Below the pieces are notes generated by a model that saw only the letters and a program-made list of their open reading frames with translations, was not told the origin of the DNA and ran no database searches. The translations under genes were made by a program, and so were the position numbers. Shown here piece by piece: positions 4,197 through 48,867 of a stretch of DNA of 64,000 nt. Origin of the DNA: a virus; the IMG/VR virus record IMGVR_UViG_3300027848_000009, positions 1-64,000 of that record. One strand, written 5' to 3'. The first letter of the stretch is position 1; every line of letters starts with the position of its first letter.

Positions 4197-4535
4197 AACG
4201 AAGCCGAGTTCGAGCGACAAGTCGTAGACACTGCCACCATCTTCGGATGGCGCACCGTCGGCCACCGCCCAATGCGAACCAAACAAGGATGGGCGACCGG
4301 CTGGAAATATGAAGGCGTCGGCTGGCCCGACCTCACCCTCATCCACCACACCGGAAAGATCATCGTCGCAGAAATCAAGATCCCACCAAACAAACTGTCA
4401 CCCGAACAAGCCGTCTGGCGAACCACCCTCGAAACATGCGCCACCAACAGCGAAGGCCACATCGAATACCGACTCTGGACACCCGACGACTTCAACGAAA
4501 TACTCCGCCTACTCTCACACGGCCGACAACAATGA
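4194..4535 (+). CDS. VRR-NUC domain nuclease (Holliday junction resolvase-like)
   Basis: MNEAEFERQV...GWPDLTLI...VAEIK...KLSPEQ.W PD-(D/E)xK pattern. Confidence 0.82.
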   Translation: MNEAEFERQVVDTATIFGWRTVGHRPMRTKQGWATGWKYEGVGWPDLTLIHHTGKIIVAEIKIPPNKLSPEQAVWRTTLETCATNSEGHIEYRLWTPDDFNEILRLLSHGRQQ

Positions 4536-4652
4536 ACACCAACCACAACCGCACCACCTGTGGCCCACCCGCCCACACCACCACAATCGCCAACACCCTC
4601 ATAGCGCACACCACCGAAGCCCGCCTCCACCAATGTCCACAGAAAGCCACAC

Positions 4653-5141
4653 ATGCCCAAGAAGCCTGAACCGATTGAACAGCCCTCGATGCTCGACGAG
4701 CACAAGGAGCGGATCATCCAGATGAAGCTGGCCGGTATCAGCGACCGGCAGATTGCTGATTCGCTCGGCGTGTCGAACTCGGCTGTCTCTCGGTATGTGA
4801 AGCGGGCGTCGGTGCAGTCGGCGATCGACGTTGCTCACGGCGCTCTCGTCAAGCGCGCTCAGCATCAGATGGCGATGGCGCTTGGCCTTGCTACGCAGAC
4901 GTTGATTCATTACGCCAGCATGGAGAACTTCGATACGATCCCTCATCAGCATCGGTTGAAAGCGACCGAGCTGCTCATCAGCGCTTCGGGCGCTTCTCGC
5001 TCGGTCGAGGTGAATGCGTTGTTGGCGGTGTCGGTGACGGAGATCGCTGCGAACTCTGCTCGGTCGAAGGCTGCTGCGATCGAGGCGACGTTGGTGGACA
5101 CCCCGGTCGGCGAGATCCCGCCGCTGCGGCTCGCCGAATAA
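4653..5141 (+). CDS. terminase small subunit (HTH)
   Basis: N-terminal HTH (AGISDRQIADSLGVSNSAVSRY); position upstream of TerL. Confidence 0.7.
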   Translation: MPKKPEPIEQPSMLDEHKERIIQMKLAGISDRQIADSLGVSNSAVSRYVKRASVQSAIDVAHGALVKRAQHQMAMALGLATQTLIHYASMENFDTIPHQHRLKATELLISASGASRSVEVNALLAVSVTEIAANSARSKAAAIEATLVDTPVGEIPPLRLAE

Positions 5142-5332: not shown

Positions 5333-6714
5333 CCGAGTCTCGTGCCGACCGGCTCGCCCGAGCGGGCAAGCTTTCGGAACTCTTCGCTCAGCTCGACGAC
5401 GACGAGGCAGCCGAGCTGGCCTACGACTGGTCTTTCTGGCAGCGACCGGAGCAGGCGATCCCGCCCGGCAATTGGGATGTCTGGATGAACCGGGCCGGAC
5501 GAGGGTACGGGAAGACACGCACCGGCTCCGAAACGATACGAGATCTCGCTCACAGCTCCCGTACAGGCTTGCTCGCAGCGGTCGCCCCAACGTCGGGCGA
5601 CGCACGGGATGTGCTTGTAGAAGGCGAATCAGGGATACTCGCTGTCTGCCCTCCGTGGGACCGCCCGAAGTACGAGCCGTCGAAGCGGCGACTGACTTGG
5701 GAATCGACCGGCGCACGACTCACCCTGTTCTCCGGCGAGGAACCCGACCGGCTCCGAGGCCCACAGCACGAGGTCGTATGGGTTGACGAACCAGCCTCGA
5801 TGGACTCGGGCGGCGAGGTGATCGACATGGCCCGCCTCGGCCTTCGGCTCGGCAAGCCGAAACTGATTATCACCGGCACCCCGAAACGGGTGGCTTGGAT
5901 GAAAGCGATCGAAGCGGAAGCGAGGACCGTCACCACGACCGGCTCAACCTACGAGAACCTCGGCAACCTCGCGCCCGCATTCATTCAGGTTGTCCTCGGC
6001 AGATACGAGGGCACCCGACTCGGCCAGCAAGAACTCCACGCCGAATACTTGGACCACGTCGATGGCGCTCTTTGGATCATGGCGACGATGGACGCCTCCC
6101 GCTTCTCCGTATGGGACGCCACGCAACCGGACGTGTCGCTGAGGGACGGGATGATGGCGCACGGCATCGAGGCACCGAAGCCCGACGGACGCATGTGGCG
6201 GACGATCGTCGCCGTTGACCCTCCCGGCGAGACAGCCGAATGCGGCATCGTCGTCGGCACCTCGCCGACCGGAGCGAAAGCGGGCAGGGACCACGCCGTG
6301 ATTCTCGCTGACGAGTCGCTCGCCGGTACACCCGAACAATGGGGAGCCGCCGTCGTCGCCGCCGCTCGCCGCTGGGACGCCCAAGCCATCTACGTCGAGA
6401 AGAACCAGGGCGGCGACATGGTCCGCTCAACGATCCACGCCGTTGACCCGTCGGTCGTCGTCAAGAAGATCACCGCCAAAGAGTCGAAGCAGGCACGAGC
6501 TGAACCTGTCTCGGCGCTCTACGCAAAGGGCTGGATACACCACGCCGGTTTCTTACCGAAGCTCGAAGACCAGATGACCGAGTGGGTTCCGAACGAGTCG
6601 AAGTCCCCTGACCGGCTCGACGCTCTCGTCCATTGTGTCCGTACTCTGCTCGAAGAAGTGCAGCCTCGCAGCGTCGGCCGAGTGGCGAGGTCATTCGGCG
6701 ACCGAAACTTCTGA
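5329..6714 (+). CDS. terL: terminase large subunit
   Basis: Walker A AGRGYGKT, RLRGPQ, Walker B WVDE, nuclease VAVDP, SPDRLDA. Confidence 0.96.
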   Translation: MTESRADRLARAGKLSELFAQLDDDEAAELAYDWSFWQRPEQAIPPGNWDVWMNRAGRGYGKTRTGSETIRDLAHSSRTGLLAAVAPTSGDARDVLVEGESGILAVCPPWDRPKYEPSKRRLTWESTGARLTLFSGEEPDRLRGPQHEVVWVDEPASMDSGGEVIDMARLGLRLGKPKLIITGTPKRVAWMKAIEAEARTVTTTGSTYENLGNLAPAFIQVVLGRYEGTRLGQQELHAEYLDHVDGALWIMATMDASRFSVWDATQPDVSLRDGMMAHGIEAPKPDGRMWRTIVAVDPPGETAECGIVVGTSPTGAKAGRDHAVILADESLAGTPEQWGAAVVAAARRWDAQAIYVEKNQGGDMVRSTIHAVDPSVVVKKITAKESKQARAEPVSALYAKGWIHHAGFLPKLEDQMTEWVPNESKSPDRLDALVHCVRTLLEEVQPRSVGRVARSFGDRNF

Positions 6715-41463: not shown

Positions 41464-41988
41464 ATGATCCCGCAATTGATCTTCCCGGCAGACGTGGCTA
41501 GCAAGATGTTCCCGGCGGACAGCAAATGGCTGCTACCCAACGAGCCGCCGTCGATCACGTGGCTGGCAGGCCAGGTGGTCTGCGAGGCGTGCGACGGCTG
41601 TGGCGACATCAGTTACCCAGAATGGGAAGGCAGGCGCCAGCCGTGTAGCGACTGCGACACGCTCGGCTATCCGCCCATCGTTGAGATCGTCAGCCAACAT
41701 TTTGGTCATCGTCGGGCTGTCCCTGAATTGGGGATTCAGCAGAACGTTGTCATCACCGTGCACGGTCGGCTTGCACTCGGGGCACCTGTACCGGTCCACG
41801 GTGAGGACGATCAATCGTGGGATTGGGTGCCGTCGATCGAGATAGGGGACGAGGGCGCATGGTACTACTACGACCAGGCGTACTGCGATGACCCGAGCAT
41901 CGAGACAAAGCCATCTGACATCTCGGACACCGTGGCTGGCACGCTCGTGCCTGGCGGTGTCGCCTATCCGGTGACGGTGGCGACATGA
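41464..41988 (+). CDS. hypothetical protein with CxxCxGxG motif (paralog of 316-867)
   Basis: CEACDGCG...CSDCDTLGYPP; shared C-terminus. Confidence 0.7.
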   Translation: MIPQLIFPADVASKMFPADSKWLLPNEPPSITWLAGQVVCEACDGCGDISYPEWEGRRQPCSDCDTLGYPPIVEIVSQHFGHRRAVPELGIQQNVVITVHGRLALGAPVPVHGEDDQSWDWVPSIEIGDEGAWYYYDQAYCDDPSIETKPSDISDTVAGTLVPGGVAYPVTVAT

Positions 41989-42221
41989 GCAACGACCGTG
42001 TTTACTTGACTACCAGCCACTACCGCCACCACTCCACAAAGACGCTTGCCGACACTCTGGCGGAAGCCAGCCGGACCGACTGGACGCCGTTCGATGTCTA
42101 CGAAATCGACCTAACCCGACCTGATCGGCCGTCGATCCGTCTTGTCGCTTCACGCAGCAAAGGTGATCCGCCCCCGGTGACGGTGGAGACGCCGCGAGAT
42201 GCGCACACTGTCACCAGTTGA
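41985..42221 (+). CDS. hypothetical protein (paralog of 864-1076, 8 aa longer)
   Basis: CGA replaces the TGA stop of copy 1. Confidence 0.65.
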   Translation: MSNDRVYLTTSHYRHHSTKTLADTLAEASRTDWTPFDVYEIDLTRPDRPSIRLVASRSKGDPPPVTVETPRDAHTVTS

Positions 42222-42259
42222 TCTATCACACCCCATCACGCACCAGAAAGGCCAGCACC

Positions 42260-42472
42260 ATGACCACCAACCGAGCAGACACGAAGAACCACTGCGTGCA
42301 TTGCGAACGCCAGATCACCCTCGATACGAGGTGGCCCCGCCCGAAAGGATCATTGGGCATCTGGTATCACGACGACCTTTTGGACTACGACTCCTCAGGC
42401 TATTCGTGCGGCCTCGACGACGGCGAAGACAACGAAGCCGAGCCTTACTCAACCCAGACGATTCCTCGATGA
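42260..42472 (+). CDS. small Cys/His protein (paralog of 1210-1422)
   Basis: See copy 1. Confidence 0.7.
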   Translation: MTTNRADTKNHCVHCERQITLDTRWPRPKGSLGIWYHDDLLDYDSSGYSCGLDDGEDNEAEPYSTQTIPR

Positions 42473-44798: not shown

Positions 44799-44958
44799 GG
44801 TGGTTAGGTTATCGCCTCTTCGACTCTAACCTTCCAACAGGCGCCATGCTGCTACATGTCTCTCTTATGCCACGACAGTCACCACGACGTCCATAGCTAC
44901 CCGTGGGCCTCTTGAGCCATCACACACGCCACCACGCTCGACACAGGCGCACACAGGG

Positions 44959-45093
44959 CCACACCTGACCCCTCCATCGCACATCAACCCCAGCACACAC
45001 CGCAGACCCCACACCCCCACCCCCACACCTGACCCCTCCATCGCACATCAACCCCAGCACACACCGCAGACCCCACACCCCCACCCCCACACC
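44959..45093 (+). repeat. 64-bp C/A-rich tandem duplication (2 copies plus partial)
   Basis: CCACACCTGACCCCTCCATCGCACATCAACCCCAGC... at 44959 and 45023. Confidence 0.9.
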
Positions 45094-45260
45094 CACAGCC
45101 CCGACAAACTTTTTCGATCACACAAACAACCAGCGGGGGCCGCTGTGTGGGGTTTTTGTTTTGGGGGGGTTGTGTTTAGTTTTATCTGGGTGGTGTTAGT
45201 GGGTGTAGGGGGGTTTGTGTTTTTTTGTGATGTGGTTCCAGATGTGTTTGATCTATTGTT

Positions 45261-45951
45261 TTATTGTCGTGGGGTTGGTTGTGTGTGGTGTGTTTTGGGG
45301 TGGTTGGTTGGGGTTTGTGGGTTTTGGGGGTTGTGGGGGTGTGGGTGTTTTCGTTGTGGGTGGTGGTGGGGGTGGTGTTTTTTTGTTTGGTCTGGTGGGT
45401 GTTGTTTAAATTTGTGGGCGGTTTTTTGGTGTGTGTGGTGGTTGCGGGTGGTGGGGTTGTACCAGTTTGGTTGGTTGTGGTTGTTGTGGGTTGCCCATGA
45501 TTGTGTGATGTCGGGGAGGCGGATGTGGGTGTGTTTGGGTGTTCCCCAGTGGTGGGTGTGGTTGTGGATGATTTGGATGGTTTGGGCGATTGATGCTCCG
45601 GGCCAGCCGATGTTGTTGAGTGTTTGGTTGGTGTGGTTGGCGAGGATGTGGGGCCATGTGTGTTGGTGGTTGAGGGCGTATCCGGCGGTGATTGAGTTTC
45701 TTGCGGTGGGGAGGTCGGGGTTGGTGGTGGAGTTGGTGTCGTGCCAGTTTTGTTGGTTGACGGTGTAGGTGTGGTTGGGGATGGGGGTGTGCCAGTTTTG
45801 GCCTTGTGTTGTTTTTGTTCCGTTTAGATTTGTTTGTATGTGTGGGGGGGGTGAAGTGTTGGTATTGGATGTTTTTGTGGTGTTCTCATGCGGTGTGGTA
45901 GTCGAAGTCGATGATTGTTGGGGTGGTTTGTTTTAGGTATTCGGAGAGCAT
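45261..45951 (-). pseudogene. hypermutated SGNH-hydrolase-like pseudogene
   Basis: Minus frame YTVN...ARNSITAGYAL...TWPHILA...NNIGWPGASI...GTPK...LPD; internal TGA at 45886-45888 and frameshift at a G8 run 45844-45851. Confidence 0.6.
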
Positions 45952-45995
45952 GGTTTGTCCTGTGGGTTTTGCCGTCGTGTTGGTTGGGTTTAGAT

Positions 45996-46181
45996 TTATC
46001 TGTTCTGTTTGGTTGGTGGGGGTCCGTGTTCGAGGGCCTCTTCCAGAAGTTTCCCGTCAATTGAAAATGTATTTTTTTCCTTGTTGTATCTTTCGCTGTG
46101 GGCGGCGAAAACTATCTCTCCGTCTTCAACGATGGAGAGTGCGGCGTCGTGGCTCGAATCGTTGATGCCGTAGATCCTCAT
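45996..46181 (-). pseudogene. truncated carbamoyltransferase (NodU/CmcH-like N-terminus)
   Basis: MRIYGINDSSHDAALSIVEDGEIVFAAHSERYNKEKN; ends after ~61 aa where low-complexity DNA starts. Confidence 0.75.
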
Positions 46182-46924
46182 CGCGGATCGTCGATATTCC
46201 AGTCGGGCGGAATTTTTTGTGGGTCGACATTTGGGATTTGTTCGGAGGGAATCATGTTTATAATTTCCCTGTAGTTGCTGAATCGTTTCCACCAGTCGTT
46301 GGGTAGATTTGGCAGGAGGTTGTGAATCAGGGTGCGGGCGTGTGGCCAGAATGATGTCATGACGAAACGTTCGCCTGAGGTGACCTCTGTGACTCCATGT
46401 AGGTATTGATGTGAGGCCGGGAACGCGATGAACATTCCGGGTTGTGGCCTGACTTCGATTCCTTGGTGCTCGAAGTAGGTTTGTCCACCTGTGAAGTCGT
46501 TGTTGAAGTAGAGCACGGACGCGATGTCGTATTGGTGGAGGCTGAGCGGGGCGTGTTCGCCCCTGATGGGGCTGAAGATGAGCGTTCCGTCTGAGTGTCC
46601 AACATCTGAGTGTGCTGACTGCTTGTCTCCCTGCACCCATTTACGCATGGCGAAGACGTTTGGTTGGAGAACGGTTTCTCCGAAAAAATCTTCGATGTGT
46701 GTTTTGGCTCGGAGGGAGATTTCCTCAAACAAATCTTGGAGGAAACTCCATTCGTTCTTATCCCTCAGCACGTTGGTGTCTTGTGACCAATGTGAACGCT
46801 CTTGGTAGTCTGCTCCTGCTGGCTGAACCCAAGGACATTCAGTGTTGAAGAAGTGCATGAATGTTCCGCACTCATTCTCTGAGAGGAAATTCGGCGCCAC
46901 GTAAAGTTGGGGGGCGCTACTCAT
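46178..46924 (-). CDS. 2OG-Fe(II) oxygenase (prolyl-4-hydroxylase-like)
   Basis: HSD, SVLYFNNDFTGG, HGVTEVTSGERF. Confidence 0.9.
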   Translation of the reverse strand: MSSAPQLYVAPNFLSENECGTFMHFFNTECPWVQPAGADYQERSHWSQDTNVLRDKNEWSFLQDLFEEISLRAKTHIEDFFGETVLQPNVFAMRKWVQGDKQSAHSDVGHSDGTLIFSPIRGEHAPLSLHQYDIASVLYFNNDFTGGQTYFEHQGIEVRPQPGMFIAFPASHQYLHGVTEVTSGERFVMTSFWPHARTLIHNLLPNLPNDWWKRFSNYREIINMIPSEQIPNVDPQKIPPDWNIDDPR

Positions 46925-46925
46925 G

Positions 46926-47270
46926 TCAGTCGTCTTCTGTTGCGTCGTCTTCTGTTGCGTTTAGGTTGTCATGATAGGAGGCGGCTAGGATTTGCGCCTG
47001 ACGCTCCATCGTGATTGGGTCCAAAATCTTGGGGAGGCTCACTTCAAGATGGCCGATAATTTTGTAGGCGATAACGCTGTTCTCGGTGTCGACGTAGTGG
47101 GGTTGAAGGAGACGAAGGTAGTCCCCGTCCCACATGACCACATAGATGCGTGAATCGTCTCCGTCACCAAACTTGAAGGTACACATTTGCGTGTGCATCG
47201 CATGCCCGGCGGTGCTTAGTTCGGAAATTTGGTCGCTGTCGACGGTTGGGATTTCTGTCTCGTCACTCAT
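46926..47270 (-). CDS. hypothetical protein
   Basis: ORF in operon. Confidence 0.6.
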   Translation of the reverse strand: MSDETEIPTVDSDQISELSTAGHAMHTQMCTFKFGDGDDSRIYVVMWDGDYLRLLQPHYVDTENSVIAYKIIGHLEVSLPKILDPITMERQAQILAASYHDNLNATEDDATEDD

Positions 47271-47299
47271 ACTTTTATCCTAGATGATGGTTGTGTTGT

Positions 47300-47884
47300 T
47301 CATTGTTGGATAGCATAAAAAATTGAAGCAAGTTGATGGATGTATAGGTTCCAACAGTCGGTCCAGAAAACTGTTCCGTTCGTCGGGTCTTGTTGACCGG
47401 CTTTCCAGAACTTTTTGTGCCTATCGAAAATCTGCCTGTTGGCGACTCCGACGACCCATGCCGTGTTGAACCGTTCGATCTCAGAGGAGTTGTTGGCGCT
47501 CCGTTGGAGAGAAACGAAGGCGTAGTAGTCGGCCATTTGATGTTCGTGGTTGTAGGCCGGAAGCGTTGCCTCGTAGTTGGGTCTAGGGGCGACTGTTCGA
47601 TCTTTTGTTTTGACCTCGATGGTCTTTTTTTCGAGTTCAGCGTTGGTGATTCCGAGGTCGTGCTTCGTGGTGTACATGGGCTCGAATTGTATTTTGTTGT
47701 CCTCAAGTACCCGTTCGGACACGATCTCGCCGAGGCATCCGACGATGTTGGCTTCTTCCTTGCGATGTGATCCTCGAAACACCGGGAGGCTTTCAGCCCT
47801 TTCGGTAGCCTTTCGATACATATCGGGGGTGATATTGACTTTCAGGAAACTGGTGTTTTGTCTGCCGGGCACGTCTCGTATCAA
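47300..47884 (-). CDS. PD-(D/E)xK nuclease-like phage protein
   Basis: GCLGE, HDL...IEVKTK.RT..P...YE, DYY.FV. Confidence 0.6.
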   Translation of the reverse strand: MIRDVPGRQNTSFLKVNITPDMYRKATERAESLPVFRGSHRKEEANIVGCLGEIVSERVLEDNKIQFEPMYTTKHDLGITNAELEKKTIEVKTKDRTVAPRPNYEATLPAYNHEHQMADYYAFVSLQRSANNSSEIERFNTAWVVGVANRQIFDRHKKFWKAGQQDPTNGTVFWTDCWNLYIHQLASIFYAIQQ

Positions 47885-47899
47885 CCATACGCAGATCCG

Positions 47900-48592
47900 T
47901 CAACGGTTGTTTTGTTCTGAAGCGAACTGTCCTGTCGTGAGGGCGTAGGGCGGATTGTCGATATGCCATACATTGACCACGATGACCTGCTTGATGCCAG
48001 ACTCGATCGGAGTCGTCTCATGGAGGCGGTGGCCAGCGTCGAATACGACAAGCCGGTCGGGTTTGCACGCGATCCGTTCCCGACGCTCGATCGGAGAGAT
48101 CAAAGATGCGGTGTTTTCCTCTTCGAGTCTCATCGAGCCTTCATCGATGCCGTGTTCGTGAATCTCAAGAAACGACCCTGTTGATTCGCTGAATCCGTAC
48201 CAGACGCAGCCGATCCTCGGACCTTGGAACCATTGAGTGTCCGCGTACAGAAATGTGTCTTCGTCGACGTGCCTAGCAAGAAATTGGCCGTGAACGAAGG
48301 TGCGAACCCAGTATTCGAAGCCTGCCACTTCCTCTTCTGGGAAGGGTAGAAGTCCTGTATCCCGCCATATTTTCTCGATGAGGCGTTGCCGGTTGGTTTG
48401 GGCGGGGGATTCCCACCATCCTGACCAGAAAGCGTATGGCGCGTAGCAGTCAGATTGTTCTGAGTGAAATTCGTTGAGAGTCTTCCCTATGTTTTCTCCG
48501 GGCATTTCCGGAGGGAAGAATGATTGATCTTCTCGTATCGGGTGTTCAAGGTCTGTTCCGGATACGAAATTATCAAAAACGAATAGGGTCAT
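47900..48592 (-). CDS. 2OG-Fe(II) oxygenase-like protein
   Basis: GFEYW...RHVDED, GCVWY, RLVVFDAG..LHETT...K....VNVW. Confidence 0.75.
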   Translation of the reverse strand: MTLFVFDNFVSGTDLEHPIREDQSFFPPEMPGENIGKTLNEFHSEQSDCYAPYAFWSGWWESPAQTNRQRLIEKIWRDTGLLPFPEEEVAGFEYWVRTFVHGQFLARHVDEDTFLYADTQWFQGPRIGCVWYGFSESTGSFLEIHEHGIDEGSMRLEEENTASLISPIERRERIACKPDRLVVFDAGHRLHETTPIESGIKQVIVVNVWHIDNPPYALTTGQFASEQNNR

Positions 48593-48867
48593 TTGTTGAA
48601 GATGGTGACCAGTCGCGCCCGCCAAGATGGCTTCTCAAGGATCGTCACGTAAGTGATTTTTTCCGGCTCGGAAACGGGCGCCGTAACTGTTTCTATGTGT
48701 TGTTTTGGGCGCGGATCGAGGCCAGCGTATGGCCCTACGATCTTCCTAGGTGCAGCTTTTTTTGCGACCGTCTTTTTGACCGTAATCTTCTTAGCGGCAG
48801 ATTTTTTTGCTGCCGGTGTCTTTTTGACCGCTTTCTTGACGGCCTTTTTTTTCTCGCTGTTTGCCAT
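48589..48867 (-). CDS. histone H1-like Lys/Ala-rich protein
   Basis: KKAVKKAVKKTPAAKKSAAKK repeats. Confidence 0.65.
   Translation of the reverse strand: MANSEKKKAVKKAVKKTPAAKKSAAKKITVKKTVAKKAAPRKIVGPYAGLDPRPKQHIETVTAPVSEPEKITYVTILEKPSWRARLVTIFNK

Follow-up and report, generated by a model that had tools for sequence, protein, structure and literature searches.

Compositional asymmetry between DNA strands is known from several settings. At replication origins, the leading strand is rich in G and T and the skew jumps from negative to positive; on the vertebrate mitochondrial heavy strand, strand-displacement replication is associated with C>T and A>G changes on the single strand; and at the ColE1 origin, mutagenesis is localized to the region in which DNA polymerase I synthesizes the initial several hundred leading-strand nucleotides, with, to our knowledge, no evolutionary skew of such a kind described. 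Local, near-total strand skew between keto (G/T) and amino (A/C) bases has been published only as GRINS, without a mechanism. The criteria for GRINS are mean absolute GC and TA skews above 0.15 that are positively correlated, a length above 500 bp, and more than 80% DNA identity to another copy in the cluster (Nivina et al., 2021, PNAS, PMC8256042). GRINS are commonest in Actinobacteria, occur in mobile elements, phages, and endonuclease genes, are most strongly biased at third codon positions, and shift amino acid usage between Pro/Thr/His/Gln and Gly/Val/Cys/Trp; their mechanism is unexplained, and single-copy skewed regions are mentioned by these authors only in passing (PMC8256042). A search of the literature on keto skew and strand hypermutation in phages returned nothing specific, and no later work on the mechanism of GRINS was found. 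Here, we describe a skew block of ~1.2 kb in which one strand is almost only G and T and the bias changes strand at one point, hereafter flip 1. It lies within the first 64 kb (64,000 nucleotides, hereafter the window) of a single virus record of 155,887 bp (IMG/VR IMGVR_UViG_3300027848_000009, here G000), whose source is an uncultured, actinobacterial phage with genomes of ~115–137 kb in its own lineage. The locus is under a position-fixed, strand-specific, and ongoing transition pressure. This finding is much firmer than the origin-type reading of its fixed point, which is plausible but unproven.

The plus strand of the window is A/C-rich (and the minus strand G/T-rich) across a non-coding short arm at 44859–45130, and ~90% G/T across a long arm from 45145 to approximately 46022, as described in an earlier note made from the letters of the window alone. 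In 200-nt windows, GC skew is −0.37 to −0.62 at 44800–45099 and +0.55 to +0.88 at 45100–45999; AT skew is −0.55 to −0.87 in the latter interval and of opposite sign in the former. The cumulative keto skew reaches its minimum, flip 1, at 45132, on a small hairpin that can be read directly from the sequence (45131–45145, minus strand): the dyad CAGCGG-GGG-CCGCTG, followed by GTTGTTTGTG on the minus strand, which scores as terminator-like. The earlier note had centered the flip on this hairpin; while the dyad does sit at the skew minimum, it is not kept in relatives, where folds predicted for the region around the flip do not improve on those of shuffled sequences. A 64-bp tandem duplication that the note had also pointed out is present within the short arm (44959–45093; period 64, 2.1 copies, 100% identical) and is specific to G000. 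Scanning the whole contig in 200-nt windows recovered few regions above 72% keto or amino content, the window block included. An Rfam scan of 44.3–46.4 kb gave no match.

Relatives' loci were compared at flip 1 using samples of multiple projects from ENA, Logan, JGI, and IMG/VR. The comparison also included G001, an IMG/VR record of 137,029 bp that has a 141-bp overlap between its ends and was taken as a circular assembly; 42.7–146.8 kb of G000 is colinear with it. An A/C-to-G/T flip occurs at the syntenic site in L001–L004, L005, L008, L009, and L027 (and at a keto-skew minimum of 104630 in G001), so that the zone in related phages that the earlier note suggested looking for does exist. The arms in relatives measure 1.1–1.6 kb and 0.6–0.8 kb, and an 8-nt core, AAAAGTTT, of the element AAAAAGTTT (45106–45114 in the window, minus-strand reading, from an alignment of five lineages) is invariant at flip 1 in 5/5 aligned lineages. 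A megablast search for cultured phages with 43.5–47.5 kb as the query returned no match. The gene order in relatives is 2OG oxygenase, 485-aa carbamoyltransferase, a 401-aa and a 266-aa gene, SGNH-like gene, a small open reading frame (ORF), HNH (in most), the flip, DUF5872, and a small membrane protein. The genes of the block are intact in these relatives, lie on either strand, and are skewed to a degree equal to or above that of the window; gene erosion, to which the note had attributed the G/T composition, is therefore not its cause, given that intact orthologues and neighbors are equally or more skewed. These comparisons also bear on whether the block is a sequencing or assembly artefact, which the note had listed as a refutation. 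Extreme composition, homopolymers, and a run of eight C that is nine in a protein from another contig would be in keeping with such an error, but equally skewed orthologues with 66–91% protein identity are found in at least seven independent assemblies of different projects, which rules it out as an account of the block and leaves it a negligible probability.

The skew follows the strand of DNA rather than the gene. At four-fold sites, the SGNH-like gene of L001 has base frequencies of A.36, C.62, G.02, and T.01, and its HNH gene A.36, C.64, G 0, and T 0, whereas the DUF5872 gene, next on the same strand, has A.02, C.13, G.29, and T.55 in L001 and A.01, C.04, G.36, and T.59 in L005. Across relatives, four-fold sites are 96–100% A/C in A/C blocks and 81–95% G/T in G/T blocks, and A/C content at third positions (AC3) is 0.94 for the SGNH-like gene versus 0.05–0.16 for its co-directional DUF5872 neighbor. 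DUF5872 is a very common conserved phage protein (4,167 matches; 58–76% identity among the best 120), and in other phages its homologues are ordinary in composition, with no flip close by; SGNH-like homologues elsewhere are also unskewed. The HNH gene, which is mobile, occupies the A/C block of L001, L008, L009/G001, and L027, with a 3′ remnant in L005 and in the window; its AC3 is 0.93–0.95 in the block versus 0.60–0.70 in homologues elsewhere, and the stem of the in-block HNH clade carries 14 keto>amino changes versus 2 amino>keto. These data indicate that the bias belongs to DNA strand and position, and not to gene, transcription direction, or codon table. Translational selection is excluded because co-directional neighbors have opposite codon preferences; a tRNA scan of G000, relevant to a codon/tRNA explanation of the skew, found no tRNA gene.

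In the window, the long arm carries the remains of an SGNH-like esterase gene on the minus strand, a pseudogene delimited by orthologue alignment at 45261–45951 (ATG at 45951; stop at 45263–45261). The corresponding stop-to-stop frame comprises 223 codons (45932–45264) and has no ATG, GTG, or TTG. Orthologue P0002 (291 aa) is present on eight contigs, P0003 (293 aa) is 66–74% identical, and both use A/C codons; two further SGNH-like orthologues were obtained from IMG/VR. A full HMMER scan recovered 328 relatives of the SGNH-like protein, of which the nearest with normal composition, P0124 and P0125, show 38–40% identity. The family motifs are G-[CD]-S-[VI]-T-x-G, N-x-x-G-x-P-G-A-S, and D-x-x-H-P-G-x-H-x-H-x-A-E. 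Against Pfam Lipase_GDSL_2, orthologues reach 21.4 and 19.1 bits, below the cut-off of 32.9, and neither the window's own frame nor the unskewed homologues match Pfam, the family being without a Pfam model. A predicted AF2 structure of P0002 (from a 49-sequence alignment) had a pLDDT of 87.9 and pTM of 0.86, and its top Foldseek matches in the PDB were all SGNH esterases (TesA, Est2A, and PAF-AH; probability 1.0), with TM-scores of only 0.28–0.50. The structural model and motifs together support the SGNH-like protein that the earlier note had discerned within the G/T tract, with the likeness at the level of fold and motifs.

This copy is dead, and the block genes of G000 died recently. Trp22 has become a stop through TGG>TGA at 45888–45886, as the note had anticipated. 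A frameshift results from one extra nucleotide in a C8 run (plus-strand G8, 45844–45851) that replaced two Glu/Lys codons of the orthologues; P0001, a database protein from a 1,231-bp contig, requires C9 at this run, whose length may therefore be polymorphic or else misread in sequencing. In block I, two G>A changes (45701–45696) have converted the GDS of orthologues to Arg-Asn-Ser (RNS); across the wider family this tripeptide is GCS, its G and S being invariant. Two internal deletions take out the catalytic D..HPG..H..IAE block, so that the block V Asp-x-x-His is absent from the window copy; P0002 retains His270, with Asn in place of the family's Asp267. A conserved ORF of ~24 aa with the pattern W-x-R-x-x-R-x-H-K-P-P-Y-x-Y-stop overlaps the SGNH-like stop (45195–45262 in the window, minus strand; L001 10868–10942; L005 3049–3125), and its start ATG has been lost in the window via T>C and G>A. 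Values of dN/dS for the SGNH-like orthologues range from 0.3 to 0.66 and are hard to interpret because synonymous sites are near biased saturation.

The direction of change was examined at SGNH-like sites where two unskewed homologues agree with each other and four skewed orthologues agree likewise. None of the 144 A/C sites became G/T, and A/C replaced 43 of 74 G and 53 of 98 T (96/172 G/T). When three taxa were compared in the sense orientation, with private changes counted per lineage, the window lineage showed 55 changes: 30 keto>amino (G>A 11, T>C 14, G>C 2, T>A 3; that is, 25 transitions and 5 transversions), 0 amino>keto, and 25 A<->C. On the plus strand these are C>T and A>G, the polarity that the earlier note had proposed. 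The intact L001 lineage, by comparison, has 4 keto>amino versus 9 amino>keto changes (Fisher p = 1.3e-6 versus the window). With the genes dead in G000, the pressure now removes even formerly protected G/T sites, which is seen as erosion: losses of conserved G/T sites in the window increase in the direction of the flip (fractions of 0.18, 0.17, 0.16, 0.29, and 0.47). The note's claim that decay worsens toward 45,140 thus holds for the window lineage, but intact relatives are block-like. Flanking genes are saturated at four-fold sites, of which ~69% differ between the window and L001, whereas only 16–22% of in-block four-fold sites differ between lineages because only A<->C changes persist. An equilibrium of ~1% G+T at free sites would imply a roughly hundred-fold asymmetry in rates.

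The zone is not the only one in the genome: a second flip of the same polarity (flip 2) is found at a cumulative keto-skew minimum of 139347 in G000 and 1442 in G001. Its block in G000 is larger (137986–139908, equivalent to L006 7986–9908), with A/C at 137986–139298 and G/T at 139337–139908, and the flip falls inside a small ribbon-helix-helix (RHH) gene, at codon ~45 in G000 and ~28 in G001. The A/C side contains HslV-like (Pfam Proteasome), WhiB (Pfam Whib), and opposite-strand RHH-Zn-finger genes, and the G/T side a helicase-loader-like gene. Four-fold sites are 94–98% A/C in the HslV-like, WhiB, and helicase-loader-like genes; in the Zn-finger RHH gene, which this A/C block carries on its opposite strand, they are 81% G/T when read in the sense direction of that gene. 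Matches to a helicase loader (PHROG 2289, E 5e-5) and an O-like replication initiator (PHROG 16167, E 1.5e-14; gene at 140016–140441, to the right of the flip) lie 130–700 nt from flip 2. Just upstream of the initiator is a third G/T-rich block of ~300 nt (140545–140854), whose A/C partner is only weak; this block may represent either the N-terminal part that the initiator lacks or an origin region. Both zones are single-copy, with blastn against the whole 155.9-kb record returning only self-matches and the 64-bp tandem copy. In both G000 and G001, the late-gene region consists of two divergent arms that start beside the large terminase (TerL) gene, flips 1 and 2 bracket this long region with each A/C-to-G/T flip at the distal end of one arm, and early and replication genes occupy the other arc.

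Transcription-associated deamination gives a G+T excess on the non-template strand. If very heavily transcribed units were mutated in this way, blocks of approximately transcription-unit size and the G/T-rich sense strands of DUF5872 and the RHH-Zn-finger gene would be accounted for; the sign is wrong, however, for the SGNH-like, HNH, HslV-like, WhiB, and helicase loader genes, whose sense strands are A/C-rich, and the sign changes within one gene, such that dominant antisense transcription would need to be assumed. We consider this very unlikely. A simpler proposal, that the sense strand is always A/C-rich through selection on RNA, is ruled out by the DUF5872 and RHH-Zn-finger genes. The skew might instead be selected as a signal, whether as G-poor, structure-free RNA on which Rho loads where the late operons end, as palindrome-free DNA that escapes restriction, or as a strand-specific protein-binding tract. 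Block edges at flip 1 that lie at most ~70 nt from gene boundaries, the position of the blocks at the far ends of two divergent late-gene arms, and the conservation of the feature across deep divergence are all consistent with such selection. Yet translation cannot be its target, given the opposite codon preferences of co-directional neighbors; the gene that contains flip 2 belongs to a co-transcribed set; drift in the same direction continues in non-coding remnants and in a dead gene; and ~2,000 individual sites would have to be selected, with conserved residues sacrificed (D267>N, C85>D). Selection for a signal appears quite unlikely.

Comparison of these sequences leads us to suggest that the fixed point is a start zone of bidirectional DNA synthesis, through replication or recombination-dependent initiation, a statement that, taken whole, falls slightly short of probable. 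In each block, the strand running 5′-to-3′ away from the fixed point has been driven to G+T by a very strong, strand-specific pressure (C>T and A>G changes on that strand), irrespective of gene direction and in intact genes, dead genes, and non-coding sequence. The displaced or lagging-template strand may often be single-stranded near the start zone; alternatively, the first 0.5–1.5 kb of the nascent strand may be made at low fidelity via G.T-type mispairs. Either would give rise to the observed polarity and limited range. An amino-to-keto jump is the polarity of a bidirectional origin under leading/lagging skew theory, and both flips, with either strand read 5′–3′, go from amino-rich to keto-rich in G000 and G001. 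The same polarity is expected for strand displacement from a nick or end, and the opposite polarity for deaminated 3′ tails left by 5′–3′ resection. A more specific form, in which both flips would be fixed bidirectional start sites whose first 0.5–1.5 kb per side is single-stranded or copied at low fidelity each round, with a ~100-fold transition bias, is possible but doubtful.

Several observations weigh against a start zone. No DnaA boxes within 1 mismatch were found at the flips beyond chance singles, no k-mer of at least 11 is common to both flips in both genomes other than low-complexity A/C words, flip 1 has no AT-rich unwinding element beyond AAAAGTTT, and there is no long-range replication skew. 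In intact relatives the skew is square-edged, with no gradient with distance from the flip, and the block edges at flip 1 fall within ~70 nt of gene boundaries. On the G/T strand, A is depleted at least as much as C, a poor fit to plain hydrolytic deamination; A depletion is better fitted by G.T-mispair errors in the resynthesized strand or by an enzymatic step. Finally, a gene for an HNH nicking or cutting enzyme lies in the block of most relatives, which keeps break-and-repair a live alternative to a start zone. As to neighboring genes, the helicase-loader-like and O-like initiator genes are within 0.7 kb of flip 2; no replication-initiation gene adjoins flip 1 in the window, relatives having an AAA_25 helicase-type gene ~5 kb away, and searches of the record for Pol A or Prim-Pol gave no match. 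The strand-displacement origin that the earlier note had entertained stays viable, including in a bidirectional form, and fits the polarity, while simple hydrolytic deamination appears doubtful.

Under a break-and-repair scenario, the flip would be a hot spot that is nicked or cut, for example by the block's HNH enzyme, followed by 5′–3′ resection each generation and low-fidelity refill in a GRINS-like, recombination-linked manner, with the polymerase writing G for A and T for C into the resynthesized strand. Strands resected and refilled in this way would be expected to show the observed polarity, a stronger A>G than C>T effect suits G.T mispairing, and the HNH gene or its 3′ remnant is present in the block of relatives and the window. 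Endonucleases also overlap 15% of actinobacterial GRINS, whose skews are tied to gene conversion (PMC8256042). However, flip 2 has neither an HNH gene nor a shared motif, and the skew is undiminished in the HNH-less L005, though that loss is recent (dS 0.018 to L009). We regard this scenario, the main rival to a start zone, as unlikely. Rather unlikely, too, is a GRINS-type process apart from replication starts or breaks, such as biased repair or a deaminase acting locally. GRINS and the phage blocks have in common correlated GC and TA skews, abrupt sign changes, functional genes, an amino acid shift, and Actinobacteria, but the two flips have one fixed A/C-to-G/T polarity in each of two genomes and replication-initiation genes in the neighborhood, which asks for a directional process, and this alternative predicts nothing specific.

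The HNH gene and the ends of contigs show further regularities near flip 1. A 15-mer, CAGATAAATC[CT]AA[AC]C, is repeated 3–4 times in the A/C block, always in one orientation and in both coding and non-coding sequence (L001 9640, 10115, and 11443; G001 103088, 103250, 104084, and 104571; window 45988 and 45174); one copy encodes the HNH C-terminus, one is inside the SGNH-like gene, and one is just upstream of the SGNH-like start. It could be the HNH target, or the copies could be conversion tracts. Relatives' contigs (L003 and L004 at their 3′ ends, and L001, L002, L008, and L027) tend to end within ~2 kb of flip 1, and two contigs from different samples share the same terminal base inside the HNH gene. 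Strain variation, whether in the presence of HNH or in the hypervariable early region, could underlie these breaks, as could low coverage where DNA is skewed.

The earlier note had favored a genome terminus or packaging site. A physical end or pac/cos site with deaminated single-stranded or resected ends could be reconciled with 5/7 relatives' contigs ending within ~2 kb of flip 1, two of them at a common base, and the polarity would be as observed if strands were displaced from linear ends; 5′–3′ resection under a deamination model, however, gives the opposite sign. Moreover, flip 1 is read through in G000, L005, L009, and G001, so that it is internal to a circular assembly whose 141-bp end overlap lies elsewhere; there are two flips per genome; TerL of the flip-bearing phage is at 81.8 kb (81848–82153), 36 kb from flip 1; and the contig breaks are at differing positions, adjacent to hypervariable sequence and to an HNH gene that some relatives carry and others lack. 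We consider a terminus or packaging site highly improbable.

The decay described above is confined to the window copy, relatives' blocks holding intact genes, and it accompanies a deletion. An N-terminal carbamoyltransferase fragment (45996–46181, minus strand) retains homology over ~53 codons, ending at ~46022, and then reads through into the skew block; the gene is thus cut off at the tract, as the note had recognized, and is intact in relatives (485 aa). This fragment marks the left edge of ~3.3 kb missing from the window, comprising the rest of the carbamoyltransferase and two further genes, and the deletion junction has a 9-nt microhomology (ccctcgaac). The HNH homing endonuclease gene of relatives survives only as a degenerate CAGATAAATCCAAC at 45174–45188 (minus strand), corresponding to its last codons (TDKSN-stop), and DUF5872 only as its last ~13 nt (44898–44910); the short arm is a remnant of the block that holds the DUF5872 gene, with its G/T-rich sense strand, in relatives. 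The neighboring oxygenase, newly near the flip after the deletion, has an AC3 of 0.69 versus 0.63 and 0.56 in relatives, a difference within noise. Two 2OG-Fe(II) oxygenase genes (248 and 241 aa; 46178–48625) adjoin the carbamoyltransferase remnant. Together with the esterase and the lost genes of 401 and 266 aa, the oxygenases have the appearance of a single tailoring cassette, partly deleted in G000.

G000 itself appears to join two phages. Positions 1–42.4 kb (window 1–42450) are a separate 41-kb phage with its own terminase, and G000 contains two large-terminase genes (5494–6075 and 81848–82153). The junction of the 41-kb phage with the ~114-kb phage is marked by an imperfect 0.9-kb direct repeat (425–1330 versus 41552–42380), and the join may be either a chimeric assembly or a real mosaic. 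Short near-identical segments are common to 3.35–3.63 kb and 150.0–150.3 kb of G000, the latter within the stretch at 149.9–153.6 kb, and the ~114-kb phage is without ~20 kb of the relative's early region. Within the 41-kb phage, a weak A/C stretch (0.70–0.79) at window positions 4355–4660 covers the 3′ end of a VRR-NUC-like gene and a small ORF; it is much milder, and drops to 0.39 where the small-terminase region starts, with the polarity of the main flips. An A/C zone at G000 132438–132900 is a false positive, reflecting a Thr/Pro-rich linker (ACN/CCN codons) of a structural-region protein.

If the start-zone reading is true, mirror blocks would provide a sequence-only marker of replication starts in uncultured phages, as well as a mechanistic handle on the unexplained GRINS, with whole genes rewritten in a two-letter alphabet. 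The locus shows the tolerance of functional proteins (WhiB, HslV-like protease, HNH nuclease) to the near-absence of G and T. It also has practical consequences: contigs tend to break in such blocks, and gene callers fail there, since neither strand offers ATG/GTG/TTG starts or stops.

Each of the systems introduced above shares some properties of the phage block. Like GRINS, it passes the skew threshold, is of sufficient length (~880 bp for the G/T arm), recodes functional proteins (in relatives, the window copy being dead), and changes sign abruptly on one strand within ~1 kb; unlike GRINS, the phage blocks are single-copy, lacking the duplicated partner, and form mirror pairs of one fixed polarity at syntenic sites, with four-fold sites up to 99–100% one-sided. 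To what is known of GRINS, the locus adds fixed polarity at both flips in two genomes, syntenic inheritance across genus-level divergence, the assimilation of a mobile HNH gene and of the widespread, conserved DUF5872 gene, a dead gene that serves as a natural neutral reporter (30 polar changes, 0 reverse), and a second flip beside replication-initiation genes. With these additions, a descriptive oddity becomes a set of testable alternatives, namely an initiation zone, a break-repair tract, and selection. With replication origins it shares the sign of the skew jump at both flips and, at flip 2, adjacent initiator-like and helicase-loader-like genes; bacterial and phage replication skews, however, are weak (a few percent) and extend over whole replichores, whereas the flips are near-total and span 0.3–1.6 kb per side. 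The same pair of transitions on one strand, reshaping the codon and amino acid usage of functional genes, is seen in mitochondrial DNA, but there the effect is graded by single-stranded time with C>T dominant, while the phage blocks are square, with a depletion of A no weaker than that of C. The ColE1 origin offers a likeness in the hand-off between polymerases, with a limited, mutation-prone nascent tract beside the initiation point; it differs in being a laboratory observation, made with error-prone Pol I, and in being unidirectional. Taken together, the phage block is an extreme, phage-borne, mirror-paired, and new variant, for which GRINS are the closest published kind.

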